A stretch of DNA of 64,000 nucleotides, taken from contig AP026135.1 of the NCBI GenBank assembly GCA_030295235.1, positions 1 to 64,000 on the forward strand, given 5' to 3'. The notes beneath the pieces were generated by a model. It searched no databases, was not told where the DNA came from, and was given only the letters and a program-made list of their open reading frames with translations. The translations under genes and the position numbers were made by a program. Below are positions 1 to 43,809 of the stretch, one piece after another; the first letter of the stretch is position 1; every line of letters begins with the position of its first letter. This DNA is from Fistulifera solaris. Lineage: Eukaryota.

Positions 1-464
1 CCCTAACCCTAACCCTAACCTCTAACCCTAACCTCTAACCCTAACCCTAACCCTAACCCTAACCCTAACCCTAACCCTAACCCTAACCCTAACCCTAACC
101 CTAACCCTAACCCTAACCCTAACCCTAACCCCTAACCCTAACCCTAACCCTAACCCTCAACCCCAACCCTAACCCTAACCCTCAACCCCAACCCTAACCC
201 TCAACCCTAACCCTAACCCTAACCCTAACCCCAACCCTAACCCTAACCCTAACCCTAACCCCAACCCTAACCCTAACCCTAACCCTAACCCTAACCCTAA
301 CCCTAACCCTAACCCTAACCCTAACCCTAACCCCAACCCTAACCCTAACCCTAACCCTAACCCTAACCCTAACCCTAACCCTAACCCTAACCCTAACCCT
401 AACCCTAACCCTAACCCTAACCCTAACCCTAACCCTAACCCTAACCCTAACCCTAACCCTAACC
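1..464. repeat. Telomeric (CCCTAA)n tract (TTAGGG on minus strand), chromosome end
   Basis: Uninterrupted CCCTAA repeats from base 1 with a few variants (CCTCTAA, CCCCAA, CCCTCAA); ends abruptly at ...ccctaacc|acggtc. Confidence 0.98.
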
Positions 465-3400
465 ACGGTCTCAGAAAGAAGATGACAATGAAGAATACTA
501 TGTAGACAATAATGAAGAGAATCGACTTGACAATTCATCGCCGCAGGCGTCCGCTTCGATCTCTCAAATCGATAAGGCTATTCAAAACGAATGGTGGAAT
601 GCTGTTTTTGGTCGGAAATGGAAACCATCTACACAGTCGACGGTCGGCCTAGCGGGCTACAAGTCAACAATATCACAGCAGTTGTGTCTTCCCTCGGATA
701 CGGGAAAATTAGGTGTTACAATCAGTCGATTGGTTTTGGGCGTTTCGGTTCGATATGTACAGCCGAACTCGCCAGCAGCTATAGCCGGCTTACCAATGCA
801 TGCTGTATTGCTAGAAATCAATGGGATTCCTTTACTTGCAGAGCCAACAAGGACAGCTCTTGAGCGACTGTGGCAGTACCAGGGGTTTGCGCAATCGGGA
901 AATCGAATGGATCTTCCAGTCCGACTTCGTTTCATCAAAGGAGGACGCATTCGAACTTATCTCATCACGGGAAGACCCCCATGGGGCATTACCTGGGGAA
1001 CCTGTGGGCAATTTGCGTTGGTGAAGAAAACACGGGGTGTAGCAGACGAAATTGGGATTAAGCGGGGAGCCATTATATCGGCAGTGGACGAACACGTAGG
1101 ACTGGATCATGTTGCCGCTGCTGGCTTTCTCAAAGATGGAGCCCAGACGATTACCTACTCATTGCCTCCTATGACGGCTAGATCGCAGAGAAGAAAATGC
1201 ATCCATGACGTCGAAGGAGAGACGACGGCCTTGCGGAAAACATCTGTGGAAGGCGTACAGGTCACATTTCATCCAGTTTGGTCAATGAGTAAGAAGAATT
1301 CTTCAATACGACATACGGAAGCGGATTTACGAACGCTGGCGGACTAGGTCGCCGCGGGGTTCGACGAACCCCAATCTGTTTCCTTCTTTGACGGTATTGT
1401 TGCCCCACGCCCTGATGAAGTTTTTTCCTTCCCGCCCCACTCCTCAGCGACGAACAAATCATCGAAGCAATGGACCCGCTGTCGTGCGCACTTTATTGTT
1501 GGAATATGCTCCATGACGATTTCGGAACCACAAGTTGCTTGTGACCGATGGAAAATAACTCTTGAATCATCCAAGCACGCGCATGTTCTCATACTCCCCC
1601 TGTTGTCTTTTGCTGTGCTTCTCTCACGAATCGAAGCAACCGGTCGAGCTTACAGTGCTCTTGTTGAAATTGTCGCGGCGAGACAAATCAATGCAACAGT
1701 ATCTATATTATGCTTTTATGCAGCTACATTGCGACTTTAGAGACTTCGCAAAGACGGCAATCTCGTGGCCCTACTTCATTGCCTAGAATTGCTACGTTTT
1801 GCAGAGAAGGAACTTGCTAGTCGCGTATTGCCGGATATAGAACAACTAATACCTCCAAGCCCTACTTCAACAGTTGAACAACCGCTGGGTCCGGAAGAAG
1901 GAAAGCGCTACCTGCGTTTCTTTCGCAAAAAGAAGAAACGAACCACTTCTCGAAAACAATTGGAACACGACATTGTGAAGTCTGCCTCTTCGACGCTCTC
2001 ACATACCCCTAGCACCGTGTACGAAAGTATGAGCGATTTTTTGAGTGAACTTGACCGATTATGCTCTTCTCTTGAGCGTTTTTTACAAAAAATCATTTCG
2101 ACAAAAGCTAACAGACTGGGCCGTTAGCGCCTGGAGTGCTTCAAAGGGGACGGCATTAGCGGACGTAACGAGCACCCTGCGTCGCTCCTTGAACCAACCT
2201 GCGTTTCCACTGTTGAACCCTGTTGATCCCTCCCAATATTTGACAAAAATTGTGATCGAGGAATGTTATATTCTTCCTAGCGCTCATTTTCCTATTCTTT
2301 GACGTTCGAAGTGGATCGTTCGGAAGAGAGCCTCTTTCTTACGGAAGTCCAGCTGGAGAGCCTGGTTGGCGAAATCGACACACCGGAAGAAGTAATTTAC
2401 ACCGTGGATATGACCGTTGGAGGATGTTTTGTGGGGTCGACACCTGGAGTTATTATACACAATGCGTCGGGCAAATCAATGTACCAATGGACGGATCAAA
2501 AATATTCTTTCGCAACAAGAGATCGAACACCTCCTTCCACGCTGTCCATTCGTCTATCATCGCGTCCTAAAAGCGACTCGGGAGCAACTACTGCTATTGG
2601 ATATGGCTGGACTGATTTGACACACGATGCAATAGTGAAACGAGTTCAGTTATTTTCCTCGCCGTCTTTTTGATAGTACAGGTGCGAGCACTGCGGTGTT
2701 ATCGCCGTTCGAATTGAAGCTGAACATTCGGACAAGAAAGACGGCCCTTGACTTTTCGGAAACGTCTTTTGCTATACAAGCATGACGATGACCTCCGACA
2801 AGAAGCATTTGCGGTAAAATTCCTACAAATTTGTGATCGGTTACTTCAAAAGAATGGCCTCGATTTGCATCTGCTGACGTTCGATGTGGTTCCGGTAGGC
2901 ACTCATCGCGGTTTTGTGGAGTGGATCTCCGGTAGTATCCCTCTTTCGGAGTTGTGTGAGAATTGGATACCGGAGGAGCCCAGCATGATAAGGAAGGCAG
3001 GTCTTACAAAATATGAGAACATTAGCGATGGAAGCTCTAATCCAGTTCAAGATTTCTTGCGCTCTTGCGCGTTCGATGCCGATGCACCCTACTGGATCAG
3101 CAAAGTTGTCATGGATAGATACATCAAGAGCTGCGCGGGATATTCTATTCTGACCTATATCCTTGGTGTTGGAGATAGGCATTTGGATAATCTACTCATT
3201 CATTCGTCGGGAGCTTTCTTTCATTGCGACTATTCATTTTTGATGGGGAGCGATCCGAAAGCCTACTTGCCGCTTCGAATCACTCCTCATATGGTAGCAG
3301 GCATGGGCGGGGTTGAATCGGATGGTTATACTAAGTTCTTGTCTTTGATGGGAGCAGCTTTTCTGTGTCTGCGGCAAGCGGAGAACGTGCATTTGATTTT

Positions 3401-3598
3401 GAGTTTGATTCGGCTCATGGAAGCGAGTTGCTTGCCTATGGAATGTGCTTAAACGACGTCCGAAATCGTCTGAGGCTTGATCTGTCGGACGAAGCTGCGC
3501 TCGAATACTTAGAGGCGTTACTTGAAACCACGGTGACCAATAAGATATGGCTGGCTGTTGATGCAATTCATACTATTGGAAAGCGAATCAAAATGTAA
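463..3598 (+). pseudogene. PI3/PI4-kinase family (Vps34-like catalytic domain) gene with N-terminal PDZ-like segments; 5'-truncated and multiply disrupted
   Basis: Kinase motifs LYKHDDDLRQE, YILGVGDRHLDNLL, FHCDYSF in 2748..3452; C-terminal RLRLDLSDEAALEY in 3365..3598; PDZ-like GKLGVTISR...VQPNSPAAIAG...LLEING. Frame is open from 463 with no early ATG; in-frame TAG at 1345-1347 and at least 6 frameshifts. Pseudogene versus end-of-contig errors is unresolved. Confidence 0.75.
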
Positions 3599-7045: not shown

Positions 7046-9175
7046 CGTGCAATTTTTATTCTTAAAAGGTTTATTACAACAAAGGAGAATAGGATTGTTT
7101 TGTTGTTAAAGATGAAAAGAAAACGAGATGATGGAGGAAAGGTATCTTCGGATTGGCCATTTGCCATTATTTTTCTTCCTTCTTCCCCTTCCGCTTCCTT
7201 CATGCTTCCGGAGGATATTCGGAATTCGGCATACTCTTTAGTCTATATTGCGAACAGAAGGACATCTGGCTGAATACCGAATAATCGATTTCCCAAGCAC
7301 AAGTAATGTGTGGAAAGTGCCCGCACTTTCTGCACGTGAAAACAAACGGAAGCATTCTTCGAACGAGGACGATTTGGAGCGAAGAAAACCTCGGGAACTT
7401 TCGTGCGTACAGGACACAGGACGGTTTGGCGTAGCCAAAAGCCAAATACTCCTTTGCGTCGGTACTGGTAGTCAAAACCCTCTGAGAAACCGTTACGACT
7501 GTTTGTAATATGGAGAATTACGGTTACGAGGTTAAGGGTACCCGGTACCCGTACGGAGTCAGAGCATTGAATTGAGAATGAGTCAGGCTAGGTATTCATG
7601 GGTCATGGCAGTGGGCGAGGCTCTCGTTGCACTCTAGACGACTTACAGTTATTTACTTCAAATAGTGACATCACGAACAAGAGAAATATCCCAATGGTTT
7701 CCAAGTCCTGACTTTGTACCAGAAGTATCTATGTTTCATCCCTCATTCCAATCAAAGTGTTTAAAGTCTGTTTGCCATGAATAAAGGTTATGTGTTGTAT
7801 TTGGCTGCATAAGAGGGGTCGTTACTGTTCATTTCTTTTGCTCTCTTTCATGCAAACTAGATTGCATGAGTCGTCTTATCAAGTACATGAGAGAAAGTAA
7901 GGGGCGCGCCGTAAGGCGAAGAAAAATTGGTTAAAAGCACGCTTTAGCTTAAAAATCACAGGAAAAGATGGAGTTGTTAATCCTATCAAAGTTTGGTAAT
8001 GATTAACTTTTGGAAGGATGAACTTTTGCAATGAAAACTATGGGGAGGTGGGAAAAAGGCGAGGGAACGTAAAATGTGAAGTCGCGATTTGCTTGGAGGG
8101 AAAATCAAAAACTTACACAACGGAAACACAAGCCTCGCCTCGCCTCGCCGCCCGCCCACGCAACTCGGGATCCAGTCACACCTAACCGGGTCTTATTTGT
8201 ACCACCTTCAAAGATTTTTCAATACCTCAATACTGGTATTATACCGTATGGTATTGCGGTATTCTAGAGCCCGTTGAACTATAACTAAATACTAAATCCA
8301 ATCCAGATTTAGACGCTCAGACATTTCTGGCAAGGCACTTTCACTTTTATCAACGTTTCTCATTATTATTTTTTGGAAGAGAGTAATAATTAATAATGGT
8401 ACGAACTGCCATGGTTGCTTTATTACGGAGTACAAAAAAACCGGTTGGTCCAGTGACCAGTGACCAGCGACCAGTGTGACCTTAAACCTTCAAGCTTCAA
8501 GCTCAAGTCGTAAGTCGTTGACCGTCGGCCTTTGGCATTAGCAATTGTGTACTAGGGTGTATTTTGGTGAGGGTTTTGAAATTTTCGTATTAACGTGTTC
8601 AAAGAAGGCCCAAAAGAATTCAAAAGGCTGTCTCAAATCTCAAAGCTTTAAACCATCTTTGGAGCGGTAGAGCGTCAGTCACACGGTAAAGGTAACACGT
8701 CAGCTTGATCAGTAATCGTGGTTCGTCGTCGATTGTGCTTCTTGTCGATCCATTTTGTCGTTCGTCGTCCTTAATGTGTTACGTGAACTACATTTACCAG
8801 GTAGCATCAAGAATCAAGATAGGGCACGTGGCATGGATTTCGGGTTTCGGGCTACATACAATTTAAGGTACATGACCCGAGGCCGAGACTTGCGTTCGTC
8901 GAATTCGAACAGAGAACAGAGTGACTAGTGATACCTTGACTATAGCCTACAAAGTAATCTCACTTTCGACTTTGGGTGCCTTTTGACTTTTGACTCTCTC
9001 AGAATGACCGTCAGCGACGCCCAATTACAAATTTCCAATTGACAAGGACGTACCTATTTGGCAACCTCACAAAACCTTTCGAACGTGAAACTACATCGAA
9101 CAACTGCAATCATGTTAGGCTGGATGAACGATTGTCTTGAGAAGCTCGTTGTTGAGAAATTCGGGATCGATGCGC

Positions 9176-9301
9176 GGCATGAAATCAAAGCCATTGCCAA
9201 GTGTGACGTTGCTGATTGCGGCTTCTTACGATTCGAGGAGTATCCTGATCAAGGCTGCCTATGATCTGATTCATGCTGGAAGTAAAGTGTCCGGTTTAGC
9301 T
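9176..9301 (+). repeat. Left copy of 126-bp direct duplication flanking the satellite
   Basis: ggcatgaaatcaaagcc...tccggtttagct; matches 11170..11296 except for one extra G in the right copy. Confidence 0.95.
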
Positions 9302-11169
9302 TACGCTTTTGGACACTTACGCTTTTGGAAACTTACGCTTTTGCAAACTTACGCATTTGGACACTTACGCTTTTGGAAACTTACGCTTTTGCAAACTTAC
9401 GCATTTGCACACTTACGCTTTTTGAAAACTTACGCTTTTGCACACTTACGCTTTAGAAAACTTAAGCTTATGAAAACTTACGCTTTTGCACACTTACGCT
9501 TTTGGAAAGTTACGCTTTTGCACACTTACGCTTTTGGACACTTACGCTTTTGGAAACTTACGCTTTTGGACACTTACGCTTTTGCACACTTACGCTTTTG
9601 CAAACTTACGCTTTTGGACACTTACGCTTTTGCACACTTACGCTTTTGCAAACTTACGCTTTTGGACACTAACGCTTTTGCACACTTACGTTTTTGCACA
9701 CTTACGCTTTTGAAAACTTACGCTTTTAGACACTTACGCTTTTTGCACACTTACGCTTTTGGAAACTTACGCTCTTCCACACTTACGCTTTTGCAAACTT
9801 ACGCTTTTGCACACTTACGCTTTTGCACACTTACGCTTTTGAAAACTTACGCTTTTAGACACTTACGCTTTTGAAAACTTACACTTTTGGACACTTACGC
9901 TTTTGGAAACTTATGCTTTTGAAAACTTACGCTTTTGCACACTTACGCTTTTCAAACTTACGCATTTGCACACTTACGCTTTTGCACACTTACGCTTCGC
10001 TTTTGGACACTTACGCTTTTGGAAACTTACGCTTTTGCAAACTTACACATTTGCACACTTACGCTTTTGGACACTTGGCGCTTTTGCACACTTACGCTTT
10101 AGAAAACTTACGCTTTTGGAAACTTACCCTTTTGCACACTTACGCTTTAGAAAACTTACGCTTTTGGAAAGTTACGCTTTTGGACACTTACGCTTTTGAA
10201 AACTTACGCTTTTGCACACTTAGGCTTTTGCACACTTACGCTTTTGGACACTTACGCTTTTGGAAACTTACGCTTTTGCAAACTTACGCATTTGGACACT
10301 TACGCTTTTGGAAACTTACGCTTTTGCAAACTTACGATTTGCACACTTACGCTTTTGCAAACTTACGCTTTGGAAAACTTACACTTTTGAAAACTTACGC
10401 TTTTGCACGCTTACACTTTAGAAAACTTACGCTTTTGCAAACTTACGCTTTTGGAAACTTACGCTTTTGGACACTTGCTTTTGAAAACTTACGCTTTTGG
10501 AAACTTACGCTTTTGCACACTTACGCTTTTGCAAACTTACTTACGCTTTTTGCACACTTACGCTTCGCTTTTGCACACTTACGCTTTTGCAAACTTACGC
10601 TTTTGCACACTTACGCTTTTGAAAACTTACGCTTTTAGACACTTATGCTTTTGAAAACTTACGCTTTTGGACACTTACGCTTTTGGAAACTTATGCTTTT
10701 GAAAACTTACGCTTTTGCACACTTATGCTTTTGCACACTTAAGCTTTTGGATACTTACGCTTTTGCACACTTACGCTTCGCTTATGGACACTTACGCTTT
10801 TGGAAACTTACGCTTTTGCAAACTTATGCATTTGCACACTTACGCTTTTGAAAACTTACGCTTTTGCACACTTATGCTTTTGGAAACTTACGCTTTTGAA
10901 AACTTACGCTTTTGGAAACTTACGCTTTTGGACACTTACGCTTTTGAAAACTTACGCTTTTGGAAACTTACGCTTTTGCACACTTACGCTTTTGCAAACT
11001 TACGCTTTTGGAAACTTACGCTTTTGGACACTTACGCTTTTGGACACTTGGCGCTTTTGAAAACTGACGCTTTTGGAAACTTACGCATTTGGACACTTAC
11101 GCTTTTGCAAACTTACGCTTTTGCAAACTTACGATTTGCACACTTACGCTTTTGCAAACTTACGCATTT
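9302..11169. repeat. 16-bp minisatellite, consensus G(G/C/A)A(A/C)ACTTACGCTTTT, about 117 units
   Basis: Directly visible tandem units such as ggacacttacgctttt, ggaaacttacgctttt, gcaaacttacgctttt, gcacacttacgctttt; count is ~1868 bp divided by 16. Confidence 0.97.
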
Positions 11170-11296
11170 GGCATGAAATCAAAGCCATTGCCAAGTGTGA
11201 CGTTGCTGATTGGCGGCTTCTTACGATTCGAGGAGTATCCTGATCAAGGCTGCCTATGATCTGATTCATGCTGGAAGTAAAGTGTCCGGTTTAGCT
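11170..11296 (+). repeat. Right copy (127 bp) of the direct duplication flanking the satellite
   Basis: Same sequence as 9176..9301; continues into the remaining H-NOX coding sequence. Confidence 0.95.
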
Positions 11297-11679
11297 GTTG
11301 ATGATCTCTTGGAGGAGTTCGGTCGGTATTTTGTTCCTTACATCTTCAATTCGGGCCATGAGAATCTAGTAAGTTAAGCTTGGTGACTGCAAGAATACAC
11401 CGTGCGTTGTATCTTCGCTGTCGTTCGACACTTGGATTTCAAACAGATTGCAATCATCCTTTACTGGTATAATTGATCAGATATTACGACATTCAGTGAA
11501 ATTTACCCGAATTTTACGTGCTGGTACTTAAATGGAGCATTGTAAACATTAGAACTTTTTTTGATCCGTGACCCATGACCATGACCCATGACCCTTAGAA
11601 CTTTTTTTTGATCTCTTAACCCTAAACTTTTCCGCCTCTCACGGGCGGGCGCCTGCCAAATGCTTACTCCGGATTACTT

Positions 11680-12409
11680 TTATTGCAAAAGATATCGATT
11701 ATTGTTGCTTGTCCTTTGTTTAAGTGAAATAGCTACCCTGTTGTGGTGGTTTTCTTCGTGCTTGGACACTCTGTCGTCGGTTGGCGCTCTCAAGAAAGTG
11801 GAAATTGTATTATCATATAACAATTGTGGTATAACGATGATTTGCGACGCAATCATCAATTTCTTTTCGCGCGCGAAAAGATACTTAAGTCGCCGTTCAA
11901 TTCTTGTCTCGTCTCTAAGGTCCTCTCCCAGCAAGTGAAACTTCTTTGTTATGGGGATGGTTGTGGGAAATAGCGAAGGTGTAGATGCTGTTCGGTCTTA
12001 CATTGGTAAATTGGATATCACCTGAGAAACATGGTTCATGGGCCAGTTGGAAATAGCGAGCGCTACGAAAATGAATCAGTGCACTATGATGATGGTCATC
12101 ATAGAAAACGCTGAAATCGTACGTCTGGAAACAAACTTGCCTGCGGATGATTCGCTTTGCAGGTTCGACGCACAAGTTTAAAAACCATACCAAAACGCGC
12201 CCAATCCAGCAAGAACGATACATATTTTTCTTTCTACAGAAAGATGCTCCTGGAACCACAAAATCACCATTCCAATACCACTCATACGTTTTCCGGCTAT
12301 CCACAGCGTATGGGTGTGGATAGATACCCAGCTTAATGTAAGCAGCGATGGCAATTGATAAAGCGGATACCAAAAAGCAATTGTCCTTGTACAACGACGA
12401 TAATGTCAT
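11680..12409 (-). CDS. Hypothetical protein (two overlapping ORFs, possibly one frameshifted gene)
   Basis: 164-aa ATG ORF with N-terminal hydrophobic stretch overlaps an 84-aa ORF by ~20 nt; no recognised motif. Confidence 0.25.
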
Positions 12410-13990
12410 CGAGACTTGGGCTCGAGCATTGCAGAGATGTACAGTAAGGTAAAAGCAAAACGCAAAAGCCGTTCCAGCTCAATTCGGTCAGTTGGCGTAT
12501 GCCGTTGTGCAGATTTTCCGACGGACTTAGAATGCATACTTCTCTGCCTCTTGATGGCTCCTCACTCCGCTGAAAAATATGAAGGCCGAGAATGGGAAAC
12601 AGGAAAGGATCGTTTTGATAATAGACAGTACCGATGGCTTACTATCCAGCACGAGAAGTGCAGCTGCAATACGTTTTATGACCCAGCGAATGCATATGCC
12701 CATTTTCATGTAAGTTCTTTGACACGCGTAGTGAGTCAGCAAAGCTGTTTGAAATGGCTCTATGAATCGTATCGATAGGACAACAGACGCGGAATTGAGT
12801 TAAAACAGAAGACAGTCAAAAACTCGCCGACACAAAGTAGAATGTGACCGGAAGTCCGACGTTTGGAGGAGAAAGAGTCGATAGGGATCTAGACGGGGCA
12901 TTGATCTTCGCGGCGCAAAGTAAAAGAGAACCCACGTAACTCATAACTCATAGTTGCAAAGCGGTAATCCACAAGGCGGTAGCGAATGCATATTCTTCGT
13001 TTGTTGTTCGGATTCGATGATCGGCATACTCTTGCATCACAATCGCTTGCATGCCAAATGCCCCATACCATGATGCCGCGACAATCACCACACGAGGGAC
13101 TGCGGAAGGAAATGCATTTCCACATGTTGTGAAATGCCTTGTAATAATTATGGAGTAATCTTCAATGAGTGAACGGCTGTGCCCTGTGCAGTAAACTTGG
13201 ACCGTACTTCGTAGTATCCAAAATATCTGGAACGTACACAGCATTTTTGTTTGCAGAGGTACACATTATCCAGAATATCTGGAACCTACACAGATGTTTG
13301 GTTTAATCCAGAAACAATCTATCCGTCTATAATACTTTATACCGCTGCTTTCTGTGTGCTTGCGTAACGTGTAGACTAATATTTAATGTGATTGTCTTCT
13401 TTTTTTACTCGATGTTATCCCCAATCGCCGATCACTATTTCTACATTATTATTTTTTTCTCATATCCTTGTATAATCGATCTATTTTTTTTAAGGAATGT
13501 TGCAAGACGATACCAGGTAGTCGCAAGTTTAATTAATGGCAAACTTGCATTTTTGCATCTCACATTCTAGAGAAGTCAGGATTGAACTTTCTTTGGTGAC
13601 TCGTGACTGAAGGGGCAATCGTGGTAAAAAAGTCGTCTACATTTTGGGGCTATAGTAACTGTCCATGGAAATGATAACCTAATCTCTAACGCCTACAGTA
13701 TTGCGAGTCCGGAATCCTCCGTCATCGCGTCCGCAGCCCGCAGTGTGATGAGAATATCTCGCGGCGCCTCACGATCGCGACGAAGATGATGATGCGATGA
13801 AGGATGTGAGATGTGAGTCAATCACAAACAAAAAGGAATTCAGAAGGTTGAAAAGTCGAAGAAAGGTATTAACCTTCAACATTGCGTTTCATAACAATCA
13901 CCAGACCTTGTCGGTTGCTTTGTATTCGCTTCGCTTTCAAAGCACCCACGTAGTTTCTTTCGTTGTGCTTTATAACGCATAACTAACAAT

Positions 13991-22423: not shown

Positions 22424-24719
22424 TCAATAGGCCCGAGTCTTCAGATTGATCCAATACCGGTTGTTGCTGTCGCGGGGGTGCACGATAACTGGAAGATGGT
22501 ATGGATGACTGCGGGCACTGGATTTCTTATTGTTCTTTCTTGGTTTTGGTTGCTTGGGTGTGACCGAAGGAGTGTCTTCGTCAATTACAACATCAGTCAG
22601 ATAATGCGGGACACCGCTGGATCGATGACGACCCAAATCGCGACGATGCGAATTACGACGGACACTGGTCATACGACTATTCCCACCGTGAGGTCGTCCG
22701 ACTTGGGGCTGCCATCTTCTTCGTCCGTGGAGCGGGTAGCATTAGAACCGTCTTCTCCTTCTTCTTTCATGGACCAGAATTGATTCTCGGCGTCTAACTC
22801 AGCTATGCTCTGACTTACATCTCCTCTACCTCCCATGCGGTGCATCATACTAGGTGCCTTGCTGACGGAATAGTCAATGCCCAGACCACGAAAGCTCCAA
22901 TCGTAACCATTTTATGAAGCACGGCTGTGATCACGACTGGCACGACTGCGCTCGCTGTCGAATAGTGGCAGCAGGATGACCGGGCTTGCTCCACTCAATG
23001 TGAGTTAGGACGTGGTATTTACTGCTTTCTCCGATCTGGGACGATTCCTCGGCGTTACGGGAGTAATGGAAACGATTAAGCGACGCATGTGACAGCTCTT
23101 CCCGGAAGCGATTGCGGCTTTCGGCAACAGTACTGAAAGTAGACAAACCAGATTTCGAAAGCGCCGACAGGGACATGACGGACATGCTGGGTTCTCCGAC
23201 ACTTTTGATTTCGGTCTCTTTGGGAGCTTCTCCGACGCTGCCTTCTTCAATAGCCATGTTTTCGGCTTTCGCACTACTGAGGCGTGACACGCCAAGCAGA
23301 TTCTCCAGCCACTTGCTTGAGATGCGCGACACGACAACAAACGTTCTTGGCGTCCGTGTAGATGAGTAGCGAGAAAATGGCGTATTGAACAAACCACCAA
23401 GGATTCTTCAAGCTCGGATGGCACAAAGAGAACGCAAAAAGCGTACTGACAGGTCCGATGATGGTTGTGAAAGCGGTGGCACTGAGCAAGAGAGGATCCA
23501 AAAAATTGAATTCGCGGCCCTGAATGTACCAGTACAGAAGAAGGGTAATGATCTGCGATGCGATCCAAGGATAGATTTCTCGGATAAACAGAAGCATAAA
23601 CATGCCGAACTTTTGTCGAAGACCCAAGTTGTGATTCAATATTAGGGGTATGCAGTGCTTCATCGAAACCTGCATCCAACCTTGCGCCCAACGCAAACGC
23701 TGATTCCAAGTATGAAGCGCAGTGGTCGTAGATAGCTCGCGACTGATGAGTTTTGGGTCGGTCTGTAACAAAGAGAGAGAGGCAAATGAGTACAGTCGTC
23801 CCAGAAAATTTCATCGCACACTTCGGCATATAAGTACTCACACCAATGTTTCCGCCTTCAGCCAGCACCCGCATACTGCTATCAATATCTTCAGTCAACA
23901 TGCTACCAAGCATACCAATACGCTTCAAAAGAGGACTCTTCCAGTATCCATTCGAGCCACCAAACACGCCGAATCCGTCCACGAACGGTGCGACCCGGAT
24001 GGGCGACGGCATATATTGTTTCGAACTCAATAGCAACCATCTTGGCCATCCAGGTTTCTTCTGGGTTTCCGACTTAGACAGTGACCTTGCACGACATCGT
24101 AGCCGTTCGATAACCAGCGCCAGGCTCGCGAGTATGAATCCAGATCAGGTTGGTGATCAGCATCGAAGACTCCCACAAAATCTCCGACGACAAAGTCCAG
24201 AGCGGCGTTCAAGTTCTGACTTTTACTTCGACTGTTCTCAATTTTCAATACCAACAGGTTAGGATGCTGATTGGAAAGCGCTCGAAGGTCATCTTCGATG
24301 GGCATAGGTACTGGTGTGTTGTAACTGAGAATGACTTGAATACCTGGTTCGTACTCGATGCTAAGGAAATGTTCTAAAGTTTCCATGATGGTTTCAGCCT
24401 CGTTAGGCATATAGGCGCAAATGATGGCAGAGGCAGGCGCCTCAGGAGCTCCAGGCTTTGTCGGGGCGCCCTTATGAAAATATGCAACAAAACATTCCGT
24501 CAGAATCAAAATGGACATGACGTTCAAAAACAGAAGTGTCGCCACGTAAACTCCGTATGTTATATCGATTCCGACCAGATGAAAGAGATAGAAGATGAAC
24601 ATAGGAAGGAAGACAGACAATGCGTAGGATGCGATGACTTGCAGGAAGTCCATGCCCATCGCCGTGATTTTGCCATCCTTCATGAACCATCGGAAGGAGA
24701 AGAAGTCGATGCAGCCCAT
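22424..24719 (-). CDS. Membrane GT2 (cellulose-synthase-like) glycosyltransferase, paralog A, with disordered C-terminal tail
   Basis: AYMPNE, SKSQNLN, FDADH, VVQG, FGGSNG, LTEDID, QRLRWAQGW (D,D,D,QxxRW set), flanking TM helices; intron 23763..23841; frameshifts near 24065, 23277 and 22955; TAA near 22913 in the tail. Confidence 0.85.
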
Positions 24720-25890
24720 GGTAACTAACTTCCGCTTCGGTTAAGAGACTGGACTTCTTAGCGCTTGGAAAAATGATACTTGTAGTAAGCAGGAAGCCTT
24801 TTGGCTTTAGGAATTTAAGAACTTGGTGAGCAATACAGCCCGTTGTTGCCCTTACAACCGTTTTGAAAGGAAGGACGAGTGTTGCTTTTGGGCTTCGGCT
24901 CGAAAAGAAAAATTTGGAGGGTCTTTGTGGTCATTCATGTTGGGTCGCGCCATAGATCGGCCTGCGCGAGATTCCCTAAATAGAATCCGTTTAATATCCT
25001 TCTTTTGTCGACTAGCAAGGCAAGCCTACATCTTACGTCATACGATCAAGGTTTAAGTCCATTCTACTTCGAAGCAAAGAGTTTTAAGTTTTTTTAGGTA
25101 TCCACTGCAGTCATCGGTCATCGTGTCTCCTTCGGAGTAAACTAATAATGACCAGAAACCAGAAACATCTGAAGGGTAATAGCGGACTAAAGTGAATTCA
25201 GGATTACCGAATACCGAATGATATGATGGGGGATAGTGCTTAGTGCTTTGTCGTCTGTCGACATGAAAGTGGGATTTTTTAATGACTCTAATTTATCTTG
25301 TTCCTCCGTTGTCTTCGTCGTACATTCAGAATTCAGTTTCAGTATCAATGCACCGTGCAAAGGGTCACAAGTTACAACTCAAAATTCAAAATTGTTTTCG
25401 GTAGTATTAGGTCATCAGATAATTTTTTTTTTTCACATATATATTTTATTCCTAATTTTTTAATCGTCAGAATCTAATCTTGACATTCGACTGAATTTTC
25501 CACTTTTCATTCACATAATTCAAAATTCAAACGGATGACTGAGGACTGAGGACGAAGGACCGAACGATTGGGAATTAGAATTAGGGAATGAAAGATAATA
25601 CATACGTAGTAGTACGTAGGGGAAACTCGTCACGTGTCACGAATCACCCTCGTCGAAATTGAATGAGGAAATCAAGCATCGCCAAGAATTCTGCTGTAAC
25701 TTGCGATCATAATCGACATGATTGATCGAATATAGGAGATACAGATACAGGTGTACGCGCCCTCTTTCACTGCATGGCTTTCCGGCATTACCGACAACCA
25801 GACGGTCATAGAGGACTAAGCTCACACGTCGAACCTCGAAAGATGAGCCTACATAGTCCTACTTCATCTCGATTTCTACATAAAAAGCTA

Positions 25891-26499
25891 TTATTTCAAT
25901 GGTCGTAAGCGCTTCATAGCTTCTGTCTTACAGTTGCGGTGGTGAGAATCACGACGGACACTGGTCATACGACTATTCCCACCGTAGTCGTCCGACTTGG
26001 GGCTGCCATCTTCTTCGTCCGTGGAGCGGGTAGCATTAGAACCGTCTTCTCCTTCTTCTTTCATGGACCAGAATTGATTCTCGGCGTCTAACTCAGCTAT
26101 GCTCTGACTTACATCTCCTCTACCTCCCATGCGGTGCATCATACTAGGTGCCTTGCTGACGGAATAGTCAATGCCCAGACCACGGAAGCTCCAATCGTAA
26201 CCATTTTGCGAAGCACGGCTGTGATCACGACTGGCACGACTGCGCTCGCGCTGTCGAATAGTGGCATCAGGATGACCGGGCTTGCTCCACTCAATGTGAG
26301 TTAGGACGTGGTATTTACTGCTTTCTCCGATCTGGGACGATTCCTCGGCGTTACGGGAGTAATGGAAACGATTGCGCGACGCATGTGACAGCTCTTCGCG
26401 GAAGCGATTGCGGCTTTCGGCAACAGTACTGAAAGTAGACAAACCAGATTTTGAAAGCGCCGACAGAGACATGACGGACATGCTGGGTTCTCCGACACT
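25891..26499 (-). other. Partial duplicate (~560 bp) of the GT2-A C-terminal tail forming a 196-aa ORF
   Basis: 25936..26499 is near-identical to 22640..23203; no GT2 domain attached. Confidence 0.85.
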
Positions 26500-30473: not shown

Positions 30474-33400
30474 ATGGTTCGACATCCGGAGCGCTTTGAG
30501 CCTAGTGAATCCTCTGACACAATATCACCTCAAGTCACTTTACCCTTCAATGAAGACACCAGTTATGTTTACGAACCTCTTCCAATATCGAAGCGGATGC
30601 AACAGAAACGGGCATTACATCTAAAAGAAGATTCGACAGAATTCGACGAGGAAGAAGGATCGAATGGAATTCACGATAAGCATCCTTCCACCTTCGGAAA
30701 CAGAAACGATTCAACGACCGCCTGGATATCGAGGAGACTGTATACTTCGAATGGATGGAGACTGATCAACACTTATTTGATTACGCCTTGCTCAGGAGCG
30801 CTGTGTTCGTCGAGGATCTGCCGTTCTCTGTATCAAAATGGACACTTTACTCCCTTGGGTCGAGAGGTTTGGCAGCTGGGTCTTGTCGTTTTCATATTTC
30901 ATCTGATTCCCATGTTTCTCTACTTCTTATTTGATCTGATAGGACTCAATGTCAGTTTTGGGGTTTATGTCGCGACTATGATCTTTCTGGTGACCATGTC
31001 CTTTCTGCTCCTCACCGAATGTTTGTGCGCATTCGGGCATTCGGGCCCTCCAAAAGCACCCGGCGTCCCCGAAACACCCGCGTCAGCTATTATTTGTGCC
31101 TATTTGCCCAATGAAGCCGAAATTATTGTGGAAGCAGTGGAACACTTTTTAAATCTAGAATACGAGCCGGGCATTCAGATCATACTAGCCTACAATACAC
31201 CCGTGCGTATTCCTGCCGTCGAAGAACAACTGGAAGTACTCGCGAATCGATTTCCCAATTTGCTGGTATTGTGCATTGAGAATTCTACTTCGAAAGCACA
31301 AAATATCAATGCTGCGCTGGATTTTGTCGTCGGGGACTTTGTAGGGGTATTTGACGCCGATCATCGACCAGAACTGCATTCGTTTTCACGCGCGTGGCGA
31401 TGGCTGTCCAACGGATACGATGTTGTGCAAGGTCATAGTGTATCGCGCAATGCGAAAGCTTCGTGGATGGCTCGGTTGATGGCGGTGGAAGCGGAATGTC
31501 ACTATGCAGTCTCCCGTGCCCGGGCAGACTACGCGTGATAAGATAGGCTTTTACCGGTCCAATGGTTACTGGAAAAGTCCTCTGTTCAAAAGAATTGGAA
31601 TGCTGGCGAGTATGAAAGCAGAAGATGTGGATGCTGGGATGATGGCTTTGGGTGAAGGTCGCAACATAGCGGTATGTATGCTAAGGAATTAATTTACGCC
31701 ATAGTTTGGCTTGTTTGATGCTTGGCTGACAATTGATCTCACGATTTTTACGATTATTATTATCGATGCAGATGGACCCACAATTGATCAGTCTTGACTT
31801 GTCAGCCACGACTCCTTTTCAGATATGGAATCAACGCATTCGATTAGCTCAGGGGTGGTTCCAGGTATCGATGAGACACTGCTTCCCACTTCTTTTTTGT
31901 CCTGCTTTAGGAGTTCGGCAAAAACTAGGTATTTTTCTGCATCTCAATGTCCGAGAAATGTTTCCATGGTTTTCATCGCAAGTCTTTACCTTGGTCTTTT
32001 ATTGGCTTATCTCGGATCGCAATCGAGATCTCATTCGACCGTTGCTACTTGCGTACATAACATATCTGCTTGTGGAGGGTCCCTTGACGGCCCTGGCGGC
32101 GTATTGCTTGTGCCAAAAGACAATGCGAAATCCATGGTGGTTTGTACAGTATGCTCTTTTCAATATTTTCTTTTTTGCCGCCGCCAAAGGTTTGTTTGCG
32201 CGTATGGGGCACATCAAACAAGCCACTGGCGAAAACATTTGGAGAGTGACACCACGATCGACGAAAGCTATTCACACTGCCCAACCGGAGCATGTTTTTC
32301 CGATACCGCAAGAGGCAGAGATCAAGGCCATCGGCGAGCCGAGCATGACGGTACTGACGATACAAAAAGTGGCGCAGTCAACACAACGAAATATGAAAAG
32401 CGTACTGCAGGAAAGTAGATTGCTATTTCAGGAGCGACTTGATCGCACTGACCGATCTCGGCATCATTTCAGCCGCCAAGAAGACGAGAGTATGATGATT
32501 GCCAAGCACAAGCTGCACCACATTGTACAGAGATGCGACTGGTCGTACGCAATCACGAATGTTGATTGCCTGGTTAGCACAAGTCCTGATGGCAGCCAAA
32601 GTGATGCTGACAGAGGTCGCCAAGGCGAAGAGTATCCGATCGAAAACAAAATTTCGGGTGTCACTCGTGTCGCGCCAAATCATATGCGGCGACCCAAGTC
32701 TTCCTGGGTAAAGTCCGAACGTGTGAAAGTGGTGGACAAAAGAAACCACTGTAGTCGTGCGAGCGAGAGCAGCAGTGATAGCCAAAGCCGTGGAAAGGCG
32801 TATGCAATGGATTGGAGCTTTCAAAACATGGATGGTGACTATAGTGTCTCCGTACAGCGTGCTGACTACGGTATACCTGTTTCGCCCGTTGATCAGAGTG
32901 TTTCGTTGCAGCCCTCCGATCATAGTGACTCAATCCGGACTTATGACATGTCGACATCACAAGCACAACAATACAAGCCGAGAACCACACGATTTCAAAA
33001 GGTCTTCAATTTTTCGAAACTTTTTTCAGGATCTGTTTCGAGCCGGGGAAGTTCCGATCTAAGCTCCTCCAAGAACTCGTTGCACACTGACTTCAGCAAA
33101 AGCATTGATGAAAATGGACCGGGTGCTTTCTGGACAAGAACGAAAGAGACAAGTATCGCTGACGAACACTCAAGTAGTACCGTTTCAGAGGCCCAACTTC
33201 CTTTGCAAGACACAACAGAAATGGGTCTCGAAAATGGATTGGAAGAAAACGGTGATGTGCAGCGCCTTCAGGCACAAAATTTAGCTGCCGCAATAATTCC
33301 TCTTCAGAATACCATTGGCCTTGTTTCATCAAACATTAAGAAGGGATTCGCTTTTGACCCGCCTTCGTCATCCATTTCAGAGACCGACGTGGCGTTTCGT

Positions 33401-37897: not shown

Positions 37898-38917
37898 AAT
37901 TATATTCTATAGAATACAGTATCATCAGCTCACGATTCTACGCCCCTTTTTTATCTTTATTACGGAGTAGATGTCACATGCCACTCATTAAAATATCTTG
38001 CTTCGGTTCTGCCGAACTCGTGACTTTTTGACGCGGGACGGATGTCAGACACGCTTTCATCACTCGCCCTCACTATGCTCGGATCTCGAATGACATTCTC
38101 TTTCTTGTTGTTTGATGTTTGATGGCTGATGATTGATGATGAACGTTTATGAATGATTCGAGCGCAAACGCAGGTAAAAGCGGAGAGGTGGTGGTTGTGC
38201 ACTGTTTCTACCGTCAACACTATTGTATCAACATTGTTGTGGGGTATGAGGGACTGAGGATTGTACGATAATTTCACTTCAATCGAGCAAGTTCAACTAG
38301 AAAAGCGGAACGCAGAAACGAAAGCACAGCAAAGTTCAAGATGGGAGATTTAGCATGGATTTTACCTACAATCATTCCTATTTCGGTGTCTTGCGTCTGA
38401 TAAAAGATGTACTAAAAGATAAATGACCATTTGTTGCTGAATAATTCTCGGAAGCTCTTGCCGCTTCCTATTTCACTTAGGTCCAGTTACCGTTTACCGT
38501 AATACGAAATACGAATAGGGAAGTCTGGAGTTAGAGTACCAGGTACCTGATACACTTGACTCCTAACTAACTCCCAACTTTTTTCCTAACTTGAATCTGC
38601 GCTTGGCACTGTGCGCTGGCAGTTGGCAATCAGCAATCCAAGTTTAATTATTTAGTGCGCCGTATAAAGTACACCTTTCTGTGCTTTTAGAATACCAAAC
38701 TGTCCCTCTCGACTTTTCTATGCGTCACGTACATCATCGGCTGAATACAACGGCGGGAGAAGCGAGAGGCGGCTCGGAACGCAGAACGCTCGCAAGTTCG
38801 CTCTCCGCAAGAAGGCTTATCAATGCAGTCCAAAGGTGCCTTGAAAGGTGTGCCTTGCTCATCAATCGGACAATCATTTCATCCAATTTATCTTGTAATA
38901 TAATACTGCACGCAACA

Positions 38918-40669
38918 ATGAGACACGACGACTTACTTATCACACTAGCTTACTTCTCCATCCCGATACAGCTGCTCATCTCGCTGTATTATTATCCGCT
39001 GTTGAAAGTTACCCCCAAACGATTCCTCGCGCTGATTGTGCTTTTTGCCTTATTCATTATGCTTTGTGGCGTGGGTCACTTGCTTCGAGCGTTCGGAAAA
39101 CACGGCGACGGCTTTGAACTCTTGAACGGCTTAACAGCAGCCATCAGCGTGACGACTGCTCTTTATTTGATTCCTATGATTCCTAATATCATGGCTACGA
39201 TCGAAAATGCGCTCGCTGAATTGAAAATGAAAGAAGAACTAGAAGAAATCAAGAACCGAAAGCTGATGACTTTCATAGGTTTCTTGTGTCATGAAGTTCG
39301 CAACCCGCTCTTTGCGATTACAAGCAGCATTGCATTTATGAAAGAAGGAGGCAACGAGAGTGATCGTGTCAATTGTCTTTGCTCGATTGAGCAAAGCGCG
39401 AATCTCATGCTACGATTAGTGAATGATGTGCTTGATATTAGCAAGCTCGAGTCGGGGAAAGTCGAGCTGGAGTTGAAAGGATTTAATGTTCTGGATCTGT
39501 TGAATGGGATATCCGCGTCTATCCAGACGCAAGTTCGCCATATGCGAGGCGCTACGGTGACTTTCACTTCTCATATAGGAGAAAATGTACCAGCAGTCAT
39601 CGAAACAGACCCCGCTCGGCTGCTTCAGATTGTATACAACTTGCTCTCGAACGCTTCCAAGTTCACTGAGAAAGGGAAGATTGATTTCATGGTAGATGTG
39701 GTACGCTATGATGAGGCTTTTGGAGATGATTCGCATACGGATGAATCATCACTGAGACGCTTACTGACAGGCGATGAGCCCGATTTTTCGGTGCAGTTGC
39801 TAGCGAGCGATGATCAAGCGTTCGTCTCCGGAAATCGTTCGGACCAACATGTTCTCAAAATCGTGGTAGCAGATACTGGGTGCGGAATCGCTCCCGATCG
39901 AATCAATGATATCTTTCGACCTTTCAATCAATCCAAAGTGTCAGATTTTAGAAAGTTCGGAGGGACTGGTCTGGGTCTAAGCATCATTGCGCAACTTACA
40001 AAGGTGATGTCAGGAAGGATTCAAGTCGATTCGAAAGAGAACGAAGGATCGATTTTCACTGTTTATTTACCCGTGCTAATCCCCACAACTCTCCAAGCAC
40101 CTCCGATGCTAGATACCGAATCAATACTACATGACTCCATCAAGAACAGTCGCTTACCGCCTATGCTCATAAATGAAGGCAGCATAGAATTTGAAGATGT
40201 AGTTGGACACGAGGCAGCATCTGCCATGGCAATTGCACCGCCTTCCGTCCGTGACATTGATGAGCTCGGAATTCTACCAAAGAAAAGTAGGGTTTTAGTT
40301 GTTGACGACAACACCGTGAATCGGAAAATTCTAGGACGAATGTTGGCGAGCTTCCAACTGGAGGTAGAGTTTGCTACAAATGGACAGGAAGCGGTGGATA
40401 TTCTCACAAGTGTACCTGGTTTTGGATTGGTATTGATGGACTTGGATATGCCTGTGTTAGATGGTATATCTGCAACCCGAGTGATTCGGCGAGACTTGGG
40501 TTTGACAGATCTGCCCATCATTGCCCTGACGGCATTTGCGGTCCAAACACAAGCGACGGACGCCCTGGATGCCGGGGTGACAGAATTTGCGACAAAACCT
40601 ATTCTCAAAGAGGACTTGCGACAGAAGTGCTGTCGGTATTTATTGAATAGGACAGACGAGATCGTCTAA
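38918..40669 (+). CDS. Ethylene-receptor-like hybrid histidine kinase 1 (3-TM ethylene-binding domain, HisKA, HATPase, REC)
   Basis: DDLLITLAYFSIP...FIMLCGVGHL...LTAAISVTTALYL.P.IP aligns by eye with the ETR1 ethylene-binding domain; H-box LCHEVRNPL, N-box NLLSNASKFT, G1 DTGCGI, G2 GGTGLGL, receiver VVDDN/LMD/KP; ATG placed at 38918 by comparison with the paralog. Confidence 0.9.
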   Translation: MRHDDLLITLAYFSIPIQLLISLYYYPLLKVTPKRFLALIVLFALFIMLCGVGHLLRAFGKHGDGFELLNGLTAAISVTTALYLIPMIPNIMATIENALAELKMKEELEEIKNRKLMTFIGFLCHEVRNPLFAITSSIAFMKEGGNESDRVNCLCSIEQSANLMLRLVNDVLDISKLESGKVELELKGFNVLDLLNGISASIQTQVRHMRGATVTFTSHIGENVPAVIETDPARLLQIVYNLLSNASKFTEKGKIDFMVDVVRYDEAFGDDSHTDESSLRRLLTGDEPDFSVQLLASDDQAFVSGNRSDQHVLKIVVADTGCGIAPDRINDIFRPFNQSKVSDFRKFGGTGLGLSIIAQLTKVMSGRIQVDSKENEGSIFTVYLPVLIPTTLQAPPMLDTESILHDSIKNSRLPPMLINEGSIEFEDVVGHEAASAMAIAPPSVRDIDELGILPKKSRVLVVDDNTVNRKILGRMLASFQLEVEFATNGQEAVDILTSVPGFGLVLMDLDMPVLDGISATRVIRRDLGLTDLPIIALTAFAVQTQATDALDAGVTEFATKPILKEDLRQKCCRYLLNRTDEIV

Positions 40670-41840: not shown

Positions 41841-42063
41841 TTCGTTTCCGAAATTCGGAAGGTCAAGCTTTGCTGTATGGGCCGTGGTGGGTGTAGGTTG
41901 TAGAGCGATCAAAACGCGACAAATGTCTGCTCGCGGGCTTGCGGATTGCGGACGCTCGCGTTTGCCGTGGAGGACAATCCATTGTCTTCGTTTTATAGTT
42001 CAGAAGGACGTCGATTCGTAAATAATTGCTTGGTAACAAACAAACAAACAATAATCAACTATC

Positions 42064-43809
42064 ATGAGACACGATGACTTACTAATCACATTGGCGTATT
42101 TTTCTATCCCGATACAGATTTTGATTTCTTTGTATTACTATCCGCTGTTAAATGCTACGCCGATACGATTCTTGGCCCTTTTCGTGTTGTTCGCCCTTTT
42201 CATTCTGCTGTGTGGGATAGGGCATCTATTCCGAGCCCTTGGAATACATGGCGATGAATTCGAGCTCTTGAATGGTTTAACGGCCGCAGTCAGTGTCATT
42301 ACCGCACTTTATTTGATTCCCATGATACCCAATATCATGTATACGATTAAAACGGCGTTAGACGATATCATTCTACAAGAAGAATTAAACAAGAATCGAA
42401 AACTAATGGCTTTCATGGGCTTCTTGTGTCACGAAATACGTAATCCGCTCTTTGCGATAACGAGCAGTATTGCCTTTATGAAAGAAGGAGGCAACGAAAA
42501 GGATCGTATCAACTACATTTATGCGATCGAGCAAAGCGCTAATCTCATGCTGCGATTAGTAAACGATGTTCTCGATATTAGCAAGCTCGAATCAGGCAAG
42601 GTTGAGTTAGAAAGGAAAACCTTCAATGTTCTGGATCTTCTGAATGGTATATCAGCTTCCATCCAGTCTCAAGTTCGTCATATGCGAGGGGCTGCAGTTG
42701 CTTTCAATGCTAAAATCAGCCAGAACGTTCCAACTGTCATCGAGGCGGACCCCGCACGACTTCTTCAAATTATTTACAACCTACTATCGAATGCCAGCAA
42801 GTTTACCGAACAAGGAAAAATTGACTTTAAGGTGGATTTAATAGCTTACGAGGATGCTTTCGGAGACGATCCTTCCACCGAGAGCGGTGGACGGCGTTCC
42901 TTGCAGGACGATGAAGCGGATTATTCGGCACGTTTGCTGGAAAGAGATGACTCAGTATCAAAGTCGGCGTATAGACCAGAGCAACATGTCCTCAAAATTG
43001 TGGTTGCAGATACTGGTTGTGGAATCGCGCCAGATCGTATCGTCGACATCTTTCGACCTTTCAACCAGTCCAAAGTCTCCGACTATCGCAAGCACGGAGG
43101 GACAGGTCTTGGTTTGAGCATTATCGCACAGCTGGTTAAAGTCATGGCTGGAAGAATTCAGGTCGACTCGAAAGAAGAAGAAGGATCGACTTTTACGGTT
43201 TACCTACCTGTCTGTTTACCTTCTGCCCTGACAACATCCTCTGCTCTTGATACCGATTCGATCTTGAACGACTCGATTAAGAACAGGCGTTTACCGCCTA
43301 TGCTTACAAACGAGAACAGAATAGATCGCTTTGACGACTCGGAGAACAGCAGCTCGGATTCACCACCGCCGATGTCGCGGCCTCAAACTGACGACGTGGA
43401 CGATTTTCGACATTTGCAGACTGATAGTAAGGTACTAGTGGTCGATGATAACACGGTGAATCGAAAGATTCTTGGACGAATGTTAACGAGTTTCCATCTG
43501 GAGATAGAATTTGCAACAAACGGTCAAGAGGCGGTTGATATTCTTGCCAGCAGATCCGGATTTGACTTAGTACTGATGGATTTGGATATGCCTGTCTTAG
43601 ATGGTATATCGGCAACCCGCATAATCCGGAAAGAACTCAGATTGACCGAGTTACCTGTAATTGCTCTGACAGCATATGCCGTCCAAACACAGGCCAAAGA
43701 GGCACTGGATGCAGGTGTGACGGAATTCGCTACAAAGCCCATCTTGAAGGAAGACTTGCGCCAAATGTGTAGCCGATATTTACTGAAGCGAACGCAGGAG
43801 ATAGTGTAG
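42064..43809 (+). CDS. Ethylene-receptor-like hybrid histidine kinase 2 (tandem paralog)
   Basis: Same architecture and motifs (DDLLITLAYFSIP, FILLCGIGHL, LCHEIRNPL, DTGCGI, GGTGLGL, VVDDN, LMD); intact 581-aa ORF. Confidence 0.92.
   Translation: MRHDDLLITLAYFSIPIQILISLYYYPLLNATPIRFLALFVLFALFILLCGIGHLFRALGIHGDEFELLNGLTAAVSVITALYLIPMIPNIMYTIKTALDDIILQEELNKNRKLMAFMGFLCHEIRNPLFAITSSIAFMKEGGNEKDRINYIYAIEQSANLMLRLVNDVLDISKLESGKVELERKTFNVLDLLNGISASIQSQVRHMRGAAVAFNAKISQNVPTVIEADPARLLQIIYNLLSNASKFTEQGKIDFKVDLIAYEDAFGDDPSTESGGRRSLQDDEADYSARLLERDDSVSKSAYRPEQHVLKIVVADTGCGIAPDRIVDIFRPFNQSKVSDYRKHGGTGLGLSIIAQLVKVMAGRIQVDSKEEEGSTFTVYLPVCLPSALTTSSALDTDSILNDSIKNRRLPPMLTNENRIDRFDDSENSSSDSPPPMSRPQTDDVDDFRHLQTDSKVLVVDDNTVNRKILGRMLTSFHLEIEFATNGQEAVDILASRSGFDLVLMDLDMPVLDGISATRIIRKELRLTELPVIALTAYAVQTQAKEALDAGVTEFATKPILKEDLRQMCSRYLLKRTQEIV

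Follow-up and report, generated by a model that had tools for sequence, protein, structure and literature searches.

A 16-bp satellite array within exon 1 of an H-NOX-like gene in the diatom Fistulifera solaris is flanked by two copies of a 126-nt exon segment

The DNA considered here is a stretch of 64,000 nucleotides (the window) from the diatom Fistulifera solaris, which corresponds to positions 1 to 64,000 of the forward strand of contig AP026135.1 (assembly GCA_030295235.1). The window begins with a telomeric repeat, and about 9 kb from this chromosome end the first exon of an H-NOX-like gene is interrupted by an array of a 16-bp satellite, which is bracketed by two copies of one segment of the exon (9175-9301 and 11169-11296). 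The features of the locus are listed below with the evidence on which each of them has been delimited; P numbers denote proteins used in or matched by similarity searches, and X numbers denote coded sequencing runs.

1..464, no strand assigned: telomeric repeat (CCCTAA)n (Tandem Repeats Finder (TRF), period 6, 76 copies).
9112..9174, + strand: start of exon 1, the single-copy part upstream of the duplication (open reading frame (ORF) and translation; Pfam HNOB positions 2-44; tblastn with P0121-P0124).
9175..9301, + strand: left copy of the exon segment (exact repeat families; P0121 begins the copy with W, contains GVYDL in frame, and then enters the array).
9302..11168, + strand: inserted satellite, about 116 units of CTTACGCTTTTG[C/G]A[A/C]A (TRF, pattern search, unit census, internal repeats, array-like X1 contigs).
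11169..11296, + strand: right copy of the exon segment (exact repeats; X1 record 7 from the window's own subgenome, and record 6 for the joint).
11297..11368, + strand: rest of exon 1, ending in …VDDLLEEFGRYFVPYIFNSGHENL (translation, Pfam HNOB to 85, tblastn).
11369-11374, + strand: GTAAGT, a likely 5' splice site (sequence reading).

The frame of the H-NOX-like gene is opened by an ATG at 9112. The left piece of the interrupted exon corresponds to positions 2-44 of the Pfam family HNOB and the right piece to positions 46-85, and the exon ending at GTAAGT is better conserved than its flanks. In the related protein P0122, HNOB (PF07700) is recognized with an E value of 1.9e-15 over profile positions 2-86 of 163, that is, over the N-terminal half of the domain, and in the window it is likewise the first ~88 positions only that are represented. 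The C-terminal half of H-NOX domains carries the haem-ligating histidine. This half found no match in the 34 downstream ORFs scanned with Pfam, none in the 64 kb by tblastn with the residues beyond ~90 of 15 longer relatives, and none anywhere in the window with a custom profile of H-NOX positions 89-197. Among the more distant relatives, full-length proteins exist (P0132, P0134, and P0135), whose later residues match nothing in the 64 kb, and the close relatives P0122-P0124 also end just past ...GHENL. A second exon, distant or much split, may have been overlooked, or the lineage may retain half of the domain only.

The satellite is detected by TRF as one array (9300-11170, period 16, 115.8 copies, 84% matches); the CT at 9300-9301 and the TGG at 11169-11171 can be assigned to the array or to the gene alike. 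When the unit CTTACGCTTTTGSAMA is searched with at most one mismatch, 90 matches are obtained, all of them on the + strand between 9300 and 11158, where shuffled sequences lead one to expect none, and there is no match outside the array in the window. A census of the units has revealed that the insert consists of 16-nt units throughout, with no unique sequence. The five commonest variants are present 15, 14, 14, 8, and 8 times, and dozens more appear one to three times each, while the CpG of the unit is largely kept (TTACGC in 94 cases, versus TTATGC in 6 and TTACAC in 4). The array also contains block repeats, since 9300-9401 equals 10235-10336 (102 nt, 100%) and 9786-9945 is nearly the same as 10566-10725 (160 nt, 97.5%). 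The long + strand ORFs found in it are a periodic reading of the unit only. The full length of the array, 1.87 kb, is the one given by the window assembly alone.

No hallmark of a transposable element has been detected in this insert. An inverted-repeat search revealed no terminal inverted repeats, no A-run, poly(A) or element-specific 3' tail can be read at either end on either strand, and the 16-nt units run from end to end with no body of a long or short interspersed nuclear element (LINE or SINE). Pfam scans of 12, 34, and 40 window ORFs, at E-value limits of 0.01, 10, and 1e-4, respectively, identified no reverse transcriptase (RT), transposase, integrase, or endonuclease family in these 86 ORFs, and Rfam and tRNA scans gave no match in the region of insertion. 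The centromere motifs described for F. solaris (10.1101/2021.11.10.468027) have no link to the 16-nt repeat.

In the window, the two copies of the exon segment share two exact repeats, 9176-9218 with 11170-11212 (43 nt) and 9218-9301 with 11213-11296 (84 nt), which are parted by a single extra G in the right copy. The copies begin one base earlier than 9176 and 11170, at T11169, a base included in the X1 contig of the window's own subgenome. Several bases of both copies are wrong in the window: in the left copy, a C replaces T at 9175 and again at 9258, and 9256 is a surplus T; in the right copy, the G at 11212 and the T at 11251 are surplus, and a C replaces T at 11253. The protein P0121 holds a Trp (tgg) where the window reads CGG at 9175-9177, and reads PDQGVYDL in frame. 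Similarly, X1 record 7 omits G11212 and T11251 and reads T at 11253, and X1 record 8 agrees at 11251 and 11253. The corrected codons, GGC GTC TAT GAT (G V Y D) and GAT TGC GGC (D C G), are the same as in P0121. Because the X1 contigs and P0121 read the corrected bases, three features of the window are errors of the assembly consensus, namely the +1 frameshift that both copies share, the G indel by which they differ, and the C at 9175. The real copies are identical, with 126 nt each counted from the T at 11169.

All the consensus errors in the exon adjoin a CpG, and we suspect that they derive from methylation-related errors of base-calling. A nanopore assembly of F. solaris obtained with Canu and polished by nanopolish alone has been reported (10.1101/2021.11.10.468027), and the window appears to be the product of a long-read assembly of this kind. 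Differences between the window and X1, either one-base indels or substitutions, are located at 9175, 9256-9258, 11212, 11251-11253, 11556, 11602, 12371, and 13626, and further genes of the assembly may appear falsely broken through such errors. The frameshifts by which this exon appears doubly broken carry a practical warning, as they originate in the assembly consensus and not in biology.

The two joints between gene and satellite can be read to the base. At the left one, CT belongs equally well to the gene (TTTAGCT) and to the unit (CTTACGC); at the right one, the same holds for TG or TGG with respect to the gene (GCG TGG CAT) and the unit variant CTTACGCATTTGGACA. Written out, the joints are ...TTTAGCT/TACGC... 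and ...CGCATT/TGGCATG..., and no filler sequence is present at either of them. Arithmetic with the usual formula indicates that an overlap of at least 2 nt at both joints is expected by chance in ~2% of cases. Depending on how this microhomology is assigned, the duplication proper measures 121-126 nt. Homology of the duplicated segment with the array was also considered and rejected, as the longest common words are 9 nt (including CTTACGATT) and 21% of 1295 control segments perform equally well or better, which is chance.

Both joints have been found independently of the window consensus. A protein search with the first 47 residues matched two proteins. P0121 corresponds to FisN_30Lu135, a product of 103 amino acids in the older NCBI annotation of F. 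solaris, and is encoded on the same 242-kb contig as the nitrite reductase. It contains the left joint, passing from ...KVSGLA to YAFGHLRFWKLTLLQTY..., that is, from the left copy directly into the array; read over a longer stretch, ...HAGSKVSGLA is followed by YAFGHLRFWKLTLLQTYAFGHLRFWKLTLLQTYAFAHLRF, and the array frame is the same as in the window. For the right joint, Logan contigs of four coded runs were placed on 11131-13900, a stretch chosen to include only ~40 nt of the array. The runs X3 and X4 yielded 0 contigs on this stretch. In X1 (coded organism A, 2015, contigs totalling 51.6 Mb), the joint lies in record 6, a contig of 58 nt with a depth of 15.4 that covers 11141-11198 with 0 differences. 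Record 7, which represents the window's own subgenome (2905 nt, depth 22.2), spans 11169-13900 and departs from the window there by 1 letter and 6 gaps of one base, and a 645-nt array-like contig is present in the same run. The structure is real, with both joints outside this consensus, and was not created by the assembly. We regard it as highly probable that the insertion is genuine and arose in one event.

The empty site is present in the same run. X1 record 8 (3626 nt, depth 18.9) exhibits 21 other letters and 2 gaps over 11169-11373, and this difference of ~10% from the window is as expected for the other subgenome of F. solaris, an allopolyploid with two subgenomes. To the left of 11169, record 8 continues as ...GAGAAATTCGGGATCGATGCA, which is the single-copy part of the exon (window 9149-9174), and to the right it runs through the whole exon, with one copy of the segment and no array. 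The proteins P0122, P0123, and P0124, with 86-91% identity in the exon, are also uninterrupted in tblastn (...KVSGLGVDVLLEEFGRYFVPY...). Beyond P0121 and P0122, 148 further proteins among the matches listed show one matched stretch each, most of them covering query residues 1 to ~88. Since the homeolog and three close relatives hold an uninterrupted exon, the insertion is derived; the filled state is lineage-specific and confined to the 'L' homeolog.

The age of the event and the state of the satellite on arrival can be deduced from three degrees of divergence. The two copies are identical, versus a match of ~84% between units of the array and a divergence of ~10% between the exons of the homeologs, so that the insertion must have taken place long after the subgenomes had split. 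The heterogeneity of the units between identical flanks shows that a mature array arrived, copied in one event either from an array that already existed or from the transcript of such an array. The array has neither grown in place from one unit nor been copied reiteratively from a short template.

A preliminary description of this DNA, made from the sequence alone, had placed the array exactly between two copies of a 126/127-bp coding segment, an arrangement that is borne out once the copies are corrected to 126 nt and moved to a start one base earlier. It had also proposed that removing the array and one copy restores a continuous H-NOX sequence, as the empty homeolog and P0122-P0124 show, and that the insert holds no transposase or RT ORF, none having appeared in the 86 ORFs scanned. 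The overlaps of 1-2 nt described at the junctions were right in being short; they are now defined as CT at the left joint and TG or TGG at the right one. The misassembly considered in that description is contradicted by the left joint in P0121 and the right joint in X1 record 6, and the empty allele it had suggested looking for exists as the single, array-free exon of the other subgenome in X1 record 8.

With regard to the consequence for the gene, the real frame starts at the ATG, encodes 63 H-NOX residues, enters the array, and stops after 40 array-encoded residues (P0121), and the right copy lacks a start codon. Because the ORF enters the array and stops there, this homeolog (FisN_30Lu135) would most likely be inactivated unless the array is spliced out, and the other subgenome retains an intact exon. 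Reading of the duplicated segment spoke against the idea of an intron, as it lacks an AGGT from which the exact exon could be recovered by splicing. In principle, the array plus 18 nt could be removed in frame between a GTAAAG of the left copy and the TTTAG at the end of the right copy.

The satellite was also sought outside the window. X1 contigs over a 36-nt stub of the array sum to a depth of 1665, versus 22 for single-copy sequence; by rough arithmetic, this is about the depth of one array of ~2 kb, and the 16-nt repeat is not abundant. Three satellite strings are identical letter for letter between X1 and the wetland metagenome X2. The latter also contains two variants of the exon (depth ~10 each, over 11169-11399), both of which differ from the window, one being like P0122 and the other like the X1 homeolog. 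This suggests that a close relative, possibly with two subgenomes, carries the satellite in the wetland habitat of X2. A protein search with an array ORF of 157 amino acids gave 7 matches, among which only P0121 is this satellite; 5 of the other 6 were inspected and are unrelated H/T/F-rich repeat proteins. A satellite dimer pattern gave 0 matches in the viral and 0 in the prokaryotic contig collections (viral_contigs and genome_contigs, respectively). A scan of metagenomes for relatives with P0122 recovered only two distant H-NOX loci, L001 (33% identity) and L002 (40%), and a genome_contigs scan for the DNA of relatives recovered none.

The mechanism that fits the locus best is a DNA-templated replicative repair with two template switches, of the type known as fork stalling and template switching or microhomology-mediated break-induced replication (FoSTeS/MMBIR), to which we assign about an even chance of being correct. 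The footprint comprises a kilobase-scale insert, a target re-copied on both sides, overlaps of 2-3 nt with no filler, and no transposon hallmarks. Replicative template switching of the FoSTeS/MMBIR type leaves a footprint of this kind. According to this model, a nascent or broken 3' end would leave the exon, prime on a satellite array through 2-3 nt of microhomology, and copy ~1.9 kb, after which it would return to the exon ~126 nt behind its exit point, again through 2-3 nt. If the break were one-ended, break-induced replication would have to synthesize no more than another ~9 kb before it reached the chromosome end, and the location 9 kb from the telomere suits this kind of repair. From these features we infer the switching of template, the use of DNA rather than RNA as the template, and the link to the telomere.

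Several points weigh against this interpretation. Template switching is read from the footprint alone, with the donor array not located, and microhomologies of 2-3 nt are weak evidence. The duplication and the short overlaps would be expected equally from the fill-in of a staggered break or from target-primed reverse transcription. X1 record 6 holds 28 letters on the array side of the right joint and 30 on the copy side, which is below the 31-letter bridging rule. The identity of the copies in X1 is beyond proof from de Bruijn contigs, in which identical words collapse, and gene conversion between the copies could be another way to keep them alike. Finally, only 2 of the 15 satellite strings extracted from X1 and X2 contigs occur exactly in the window array, and the others need 1-7 edits. 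This implies that there are other arrays or that the array was smoothed in the long-read consensus; other arrays, if they are real, would provide a possible donor and make the satellite older than the insertion.

The explanation that comes closest to template switching, although we consider it unlikely, is that satellite DNA was captured from an extrachromosomal source. Such DNA, either linear or from a circle that had opened, would have been end-joined into a break with nicks ~126 nt apart, and the fill-in of the ends would have made the duplication. An insert of pure satellite with clean joints and overlaps of 2-3 nt is what such a capture would leave, and reinsertion via extrachromosomal circles has been proposed for the dissemination of satellites (PMC9940879). 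However, nothing at this locus shows nicks 126 nt apart. In addition, the ends of the array ('...CATTTG(G)' and 'CTTACGC') lack ~3 nt of the unit and do not form a simple circle junction, an observation that is indecisive given the microhomology.

Target-primed reverse transcription appears improbable. In this case, a non-LTR (non-long terminal repeat) or Penelope-type enzyme acting in trans would have reverse-transcribed a satellite transcript at a nick, with a second nick ~126 nt away, as in the elements R9 and Dualen. Non-LTR elements do make long flanking duplications, of 126 bp in R9 and with a median of 900 bp in Dualen-4b (PMC9977147), and RTE-like non-LTR elements are present in at least one diatom (PMC2806351). 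Nevertheless, neither end of the insert shows a poly(A) or an element-type tail, the body of a LINE or SINE is missing, the 86 window ORFs scanned yielded no RT or endonuclease domain, and the heterogeneity of the units speaks against reiterative copying of a short template. With a length of 121-126 nt and no other likeness to R9, nothing beyond the duplication favours this route.

An origin in situ, in which 126 bp of the exon were first duplicated in tandem and the joint between the copies then gave rise to the array or let it expand, is very improbable. The internal block repeats do show unequal exchange within the array, which may have taken place here or in the donor. On the other hand, the tandem joint (...TTTAGCT/TGGCATG...) offers no 16-mer seed, and the units differ by 16% between identical flanks. 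Moreover, related satellite strings occur in X2, whose exon variants are unlike the window, and the satellite is therefore probably older than the insertion. Least credible of all is that a chimeric or mis-joined long-read contig made the duplication and the array, since the imperfect consensus (over 11169-13900, 6 one-base indels and 1 substitution relative to the X1 contig) and an array length taken from this assembly alone are set against a left joint in P0121, a right joint in X1 record 6, and the 645-nt array-like contig of X1.

A broader claim is that the 16-bp repeat is a truly mobile diatom satellite, inserted repeatedly into genes by an enzyme-set staggered cut or by reverse transcription of array RNA, with a duplication of ~126 bp each time. 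This is doubtful; if it were true, the repeat would be a small-unit counterpart of the Chlamydomonas satellite MSAT-11, with joints that reveal the mechanism. A milder version of the claim would see the array and one copy of the duplication as developing into a new intron. The preliminary description had already used the label 'mobile satellite', which the one insertion examined does not support. It had also left the mechanism between trans-acting target-primed reverse transcription and templated repair, and it is templated repair that has held up as the best fit, while the reverse transcription has lost ground for want of a poly(A) or element tail and of an RT or endonuclease domain.

The value of the locus lies in having both joints resolved to the base together with an empty homeolog in the same cell, which acts as a built-in 'before' state. 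It provides a rare base-resolved footprint of the spread of satellite DNA, and this footprint (identical 126-nt flanks, overlaps of 2-3 nt, and a heterogeneous insert) constrains the mechanism to single-step copying with the target either re-copied or stagger-cut. It also offers what is most likely an example of the loss of a gene copy from one subgenome of an allopolyploid diatom.

The remainder of the window shows the setting of the gene. Contigs of F. solaris have been reported to end in CCCTAA repeats (bioRxiv 10.1101/2021.11.10.468027). At this end, the telomeric repeat passes directly into coding sequence, with a PDZ-domain ORF from 463 and a PI3/PI4-kinase ORF at 2724-3452, and no subtelomeric satellite or transposon zone was found in window 1-3452. 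Besides these PDZ and PI3/PI4-kinase proteins, the genes identified with Pfam include an NAD(P)H nitrite reductase on the minus strand, whose ORF is 100% identical to an NCBI F. solaris protein. A direct repeat of 559 nt (97% identity, 22647-23203 and 25943-26499) brackets a segment of ~2.7 kb that contains a family-2 glycosyltransferase ORF (24030-24740, minus strand), a further duplication-flanked segment of the same subtelomeric region; an inverted paralogous stretch of 67% identity is located at 30907-31435. Two paralogous hybrid histidine kinases are encoded in tandem at 38648-40666 and 42055-43806. They have an N-terminal domain like that of ethylene receptors (domains ETR1_N, HisKA, HATPase_c, and Response_reg), and their repeated parts are 78-80% identical at the DNA level. 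The stretch 13627-13659, with ~2x depth in X1 and contigs branching off at both sides, is a small dispersed repeat.

Among known systems, the closest precedent of the F. solaris insertion is MSAT-11_cRei from Chlamydomonas reinhardtii (PMC9977147, PMC9940879). This satellite has a monomer of 1.9 kb and home arrays on two chromosomes, and its insertions, of 0.5 to >21 kb, consist wholly of satellite, exhibit no transposon features, and disrupt genes, in one case in a first exon. Four de novo events have been detected in mutation-accumulation lines, and the mechanism has been called unclear (PMC9977147, PMC9940879). Both inserts are alike in being all satellite, in interrupting a gene, and in being absent from the ancestral state. 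They differ in that the F. solaris unit is of 16 bp, the event is a single old one, and the home array has not been located. The flanking duplication of ~126 nt is a notable feature of the F. solaris insertion, and the passages available on MSAT-11_cRei do not mention flanking duplications.

Templated insertions of the FoSTeS/MMBIR type, known from human copy-number variants and from break-induced replication in yeast, share with the F. solaris locus a kilobase-scale insert, a microhomology of 2-3 nt, and a re-copied target. The absence of filler and the vicinity of a chromosome end are further points of resemblance. The differences are that the F. solaris insert is satellite and not unique sequence, and that its donor template has not been identified.

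The non-LTR retrotransposon R9 is an autonomous LINE specific to 28S ribosomal DNA (rDNA), which encodes an RT and an endonuclease. Its 126-bp target-site duplication in bdelloid rotifers, invoked in the preliminary description for the match in length, is confirmed by the literature (Gladyshev and Arkhipova 2009, as cited in PMC9977147). The likeness itself does not extend beyond a direct duplication of ~126 bp, since the F. solaris insert has no ORF, its target is not rDNA, its host belongs to a different kingdom, and its duplication is of 121-126 nt with nothing else that resembles R9. The match to 126 bp is most likely a coincidence. The LINE Dualen-4b_cRei, from a green alga, also produces flanking duplications, with a median of 900 bp (PMC9977147). 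Its long, variable duplications around an insertion in an alga resemble the F. solaris case, although its insert is a LINE with two endonucleases, in contrast to a pure satellite. Taken against these systems, the F. solaris insertion is a further instance of a rare but known kind, now in a diatom, with a 16-bp unit and fully resolved joints.

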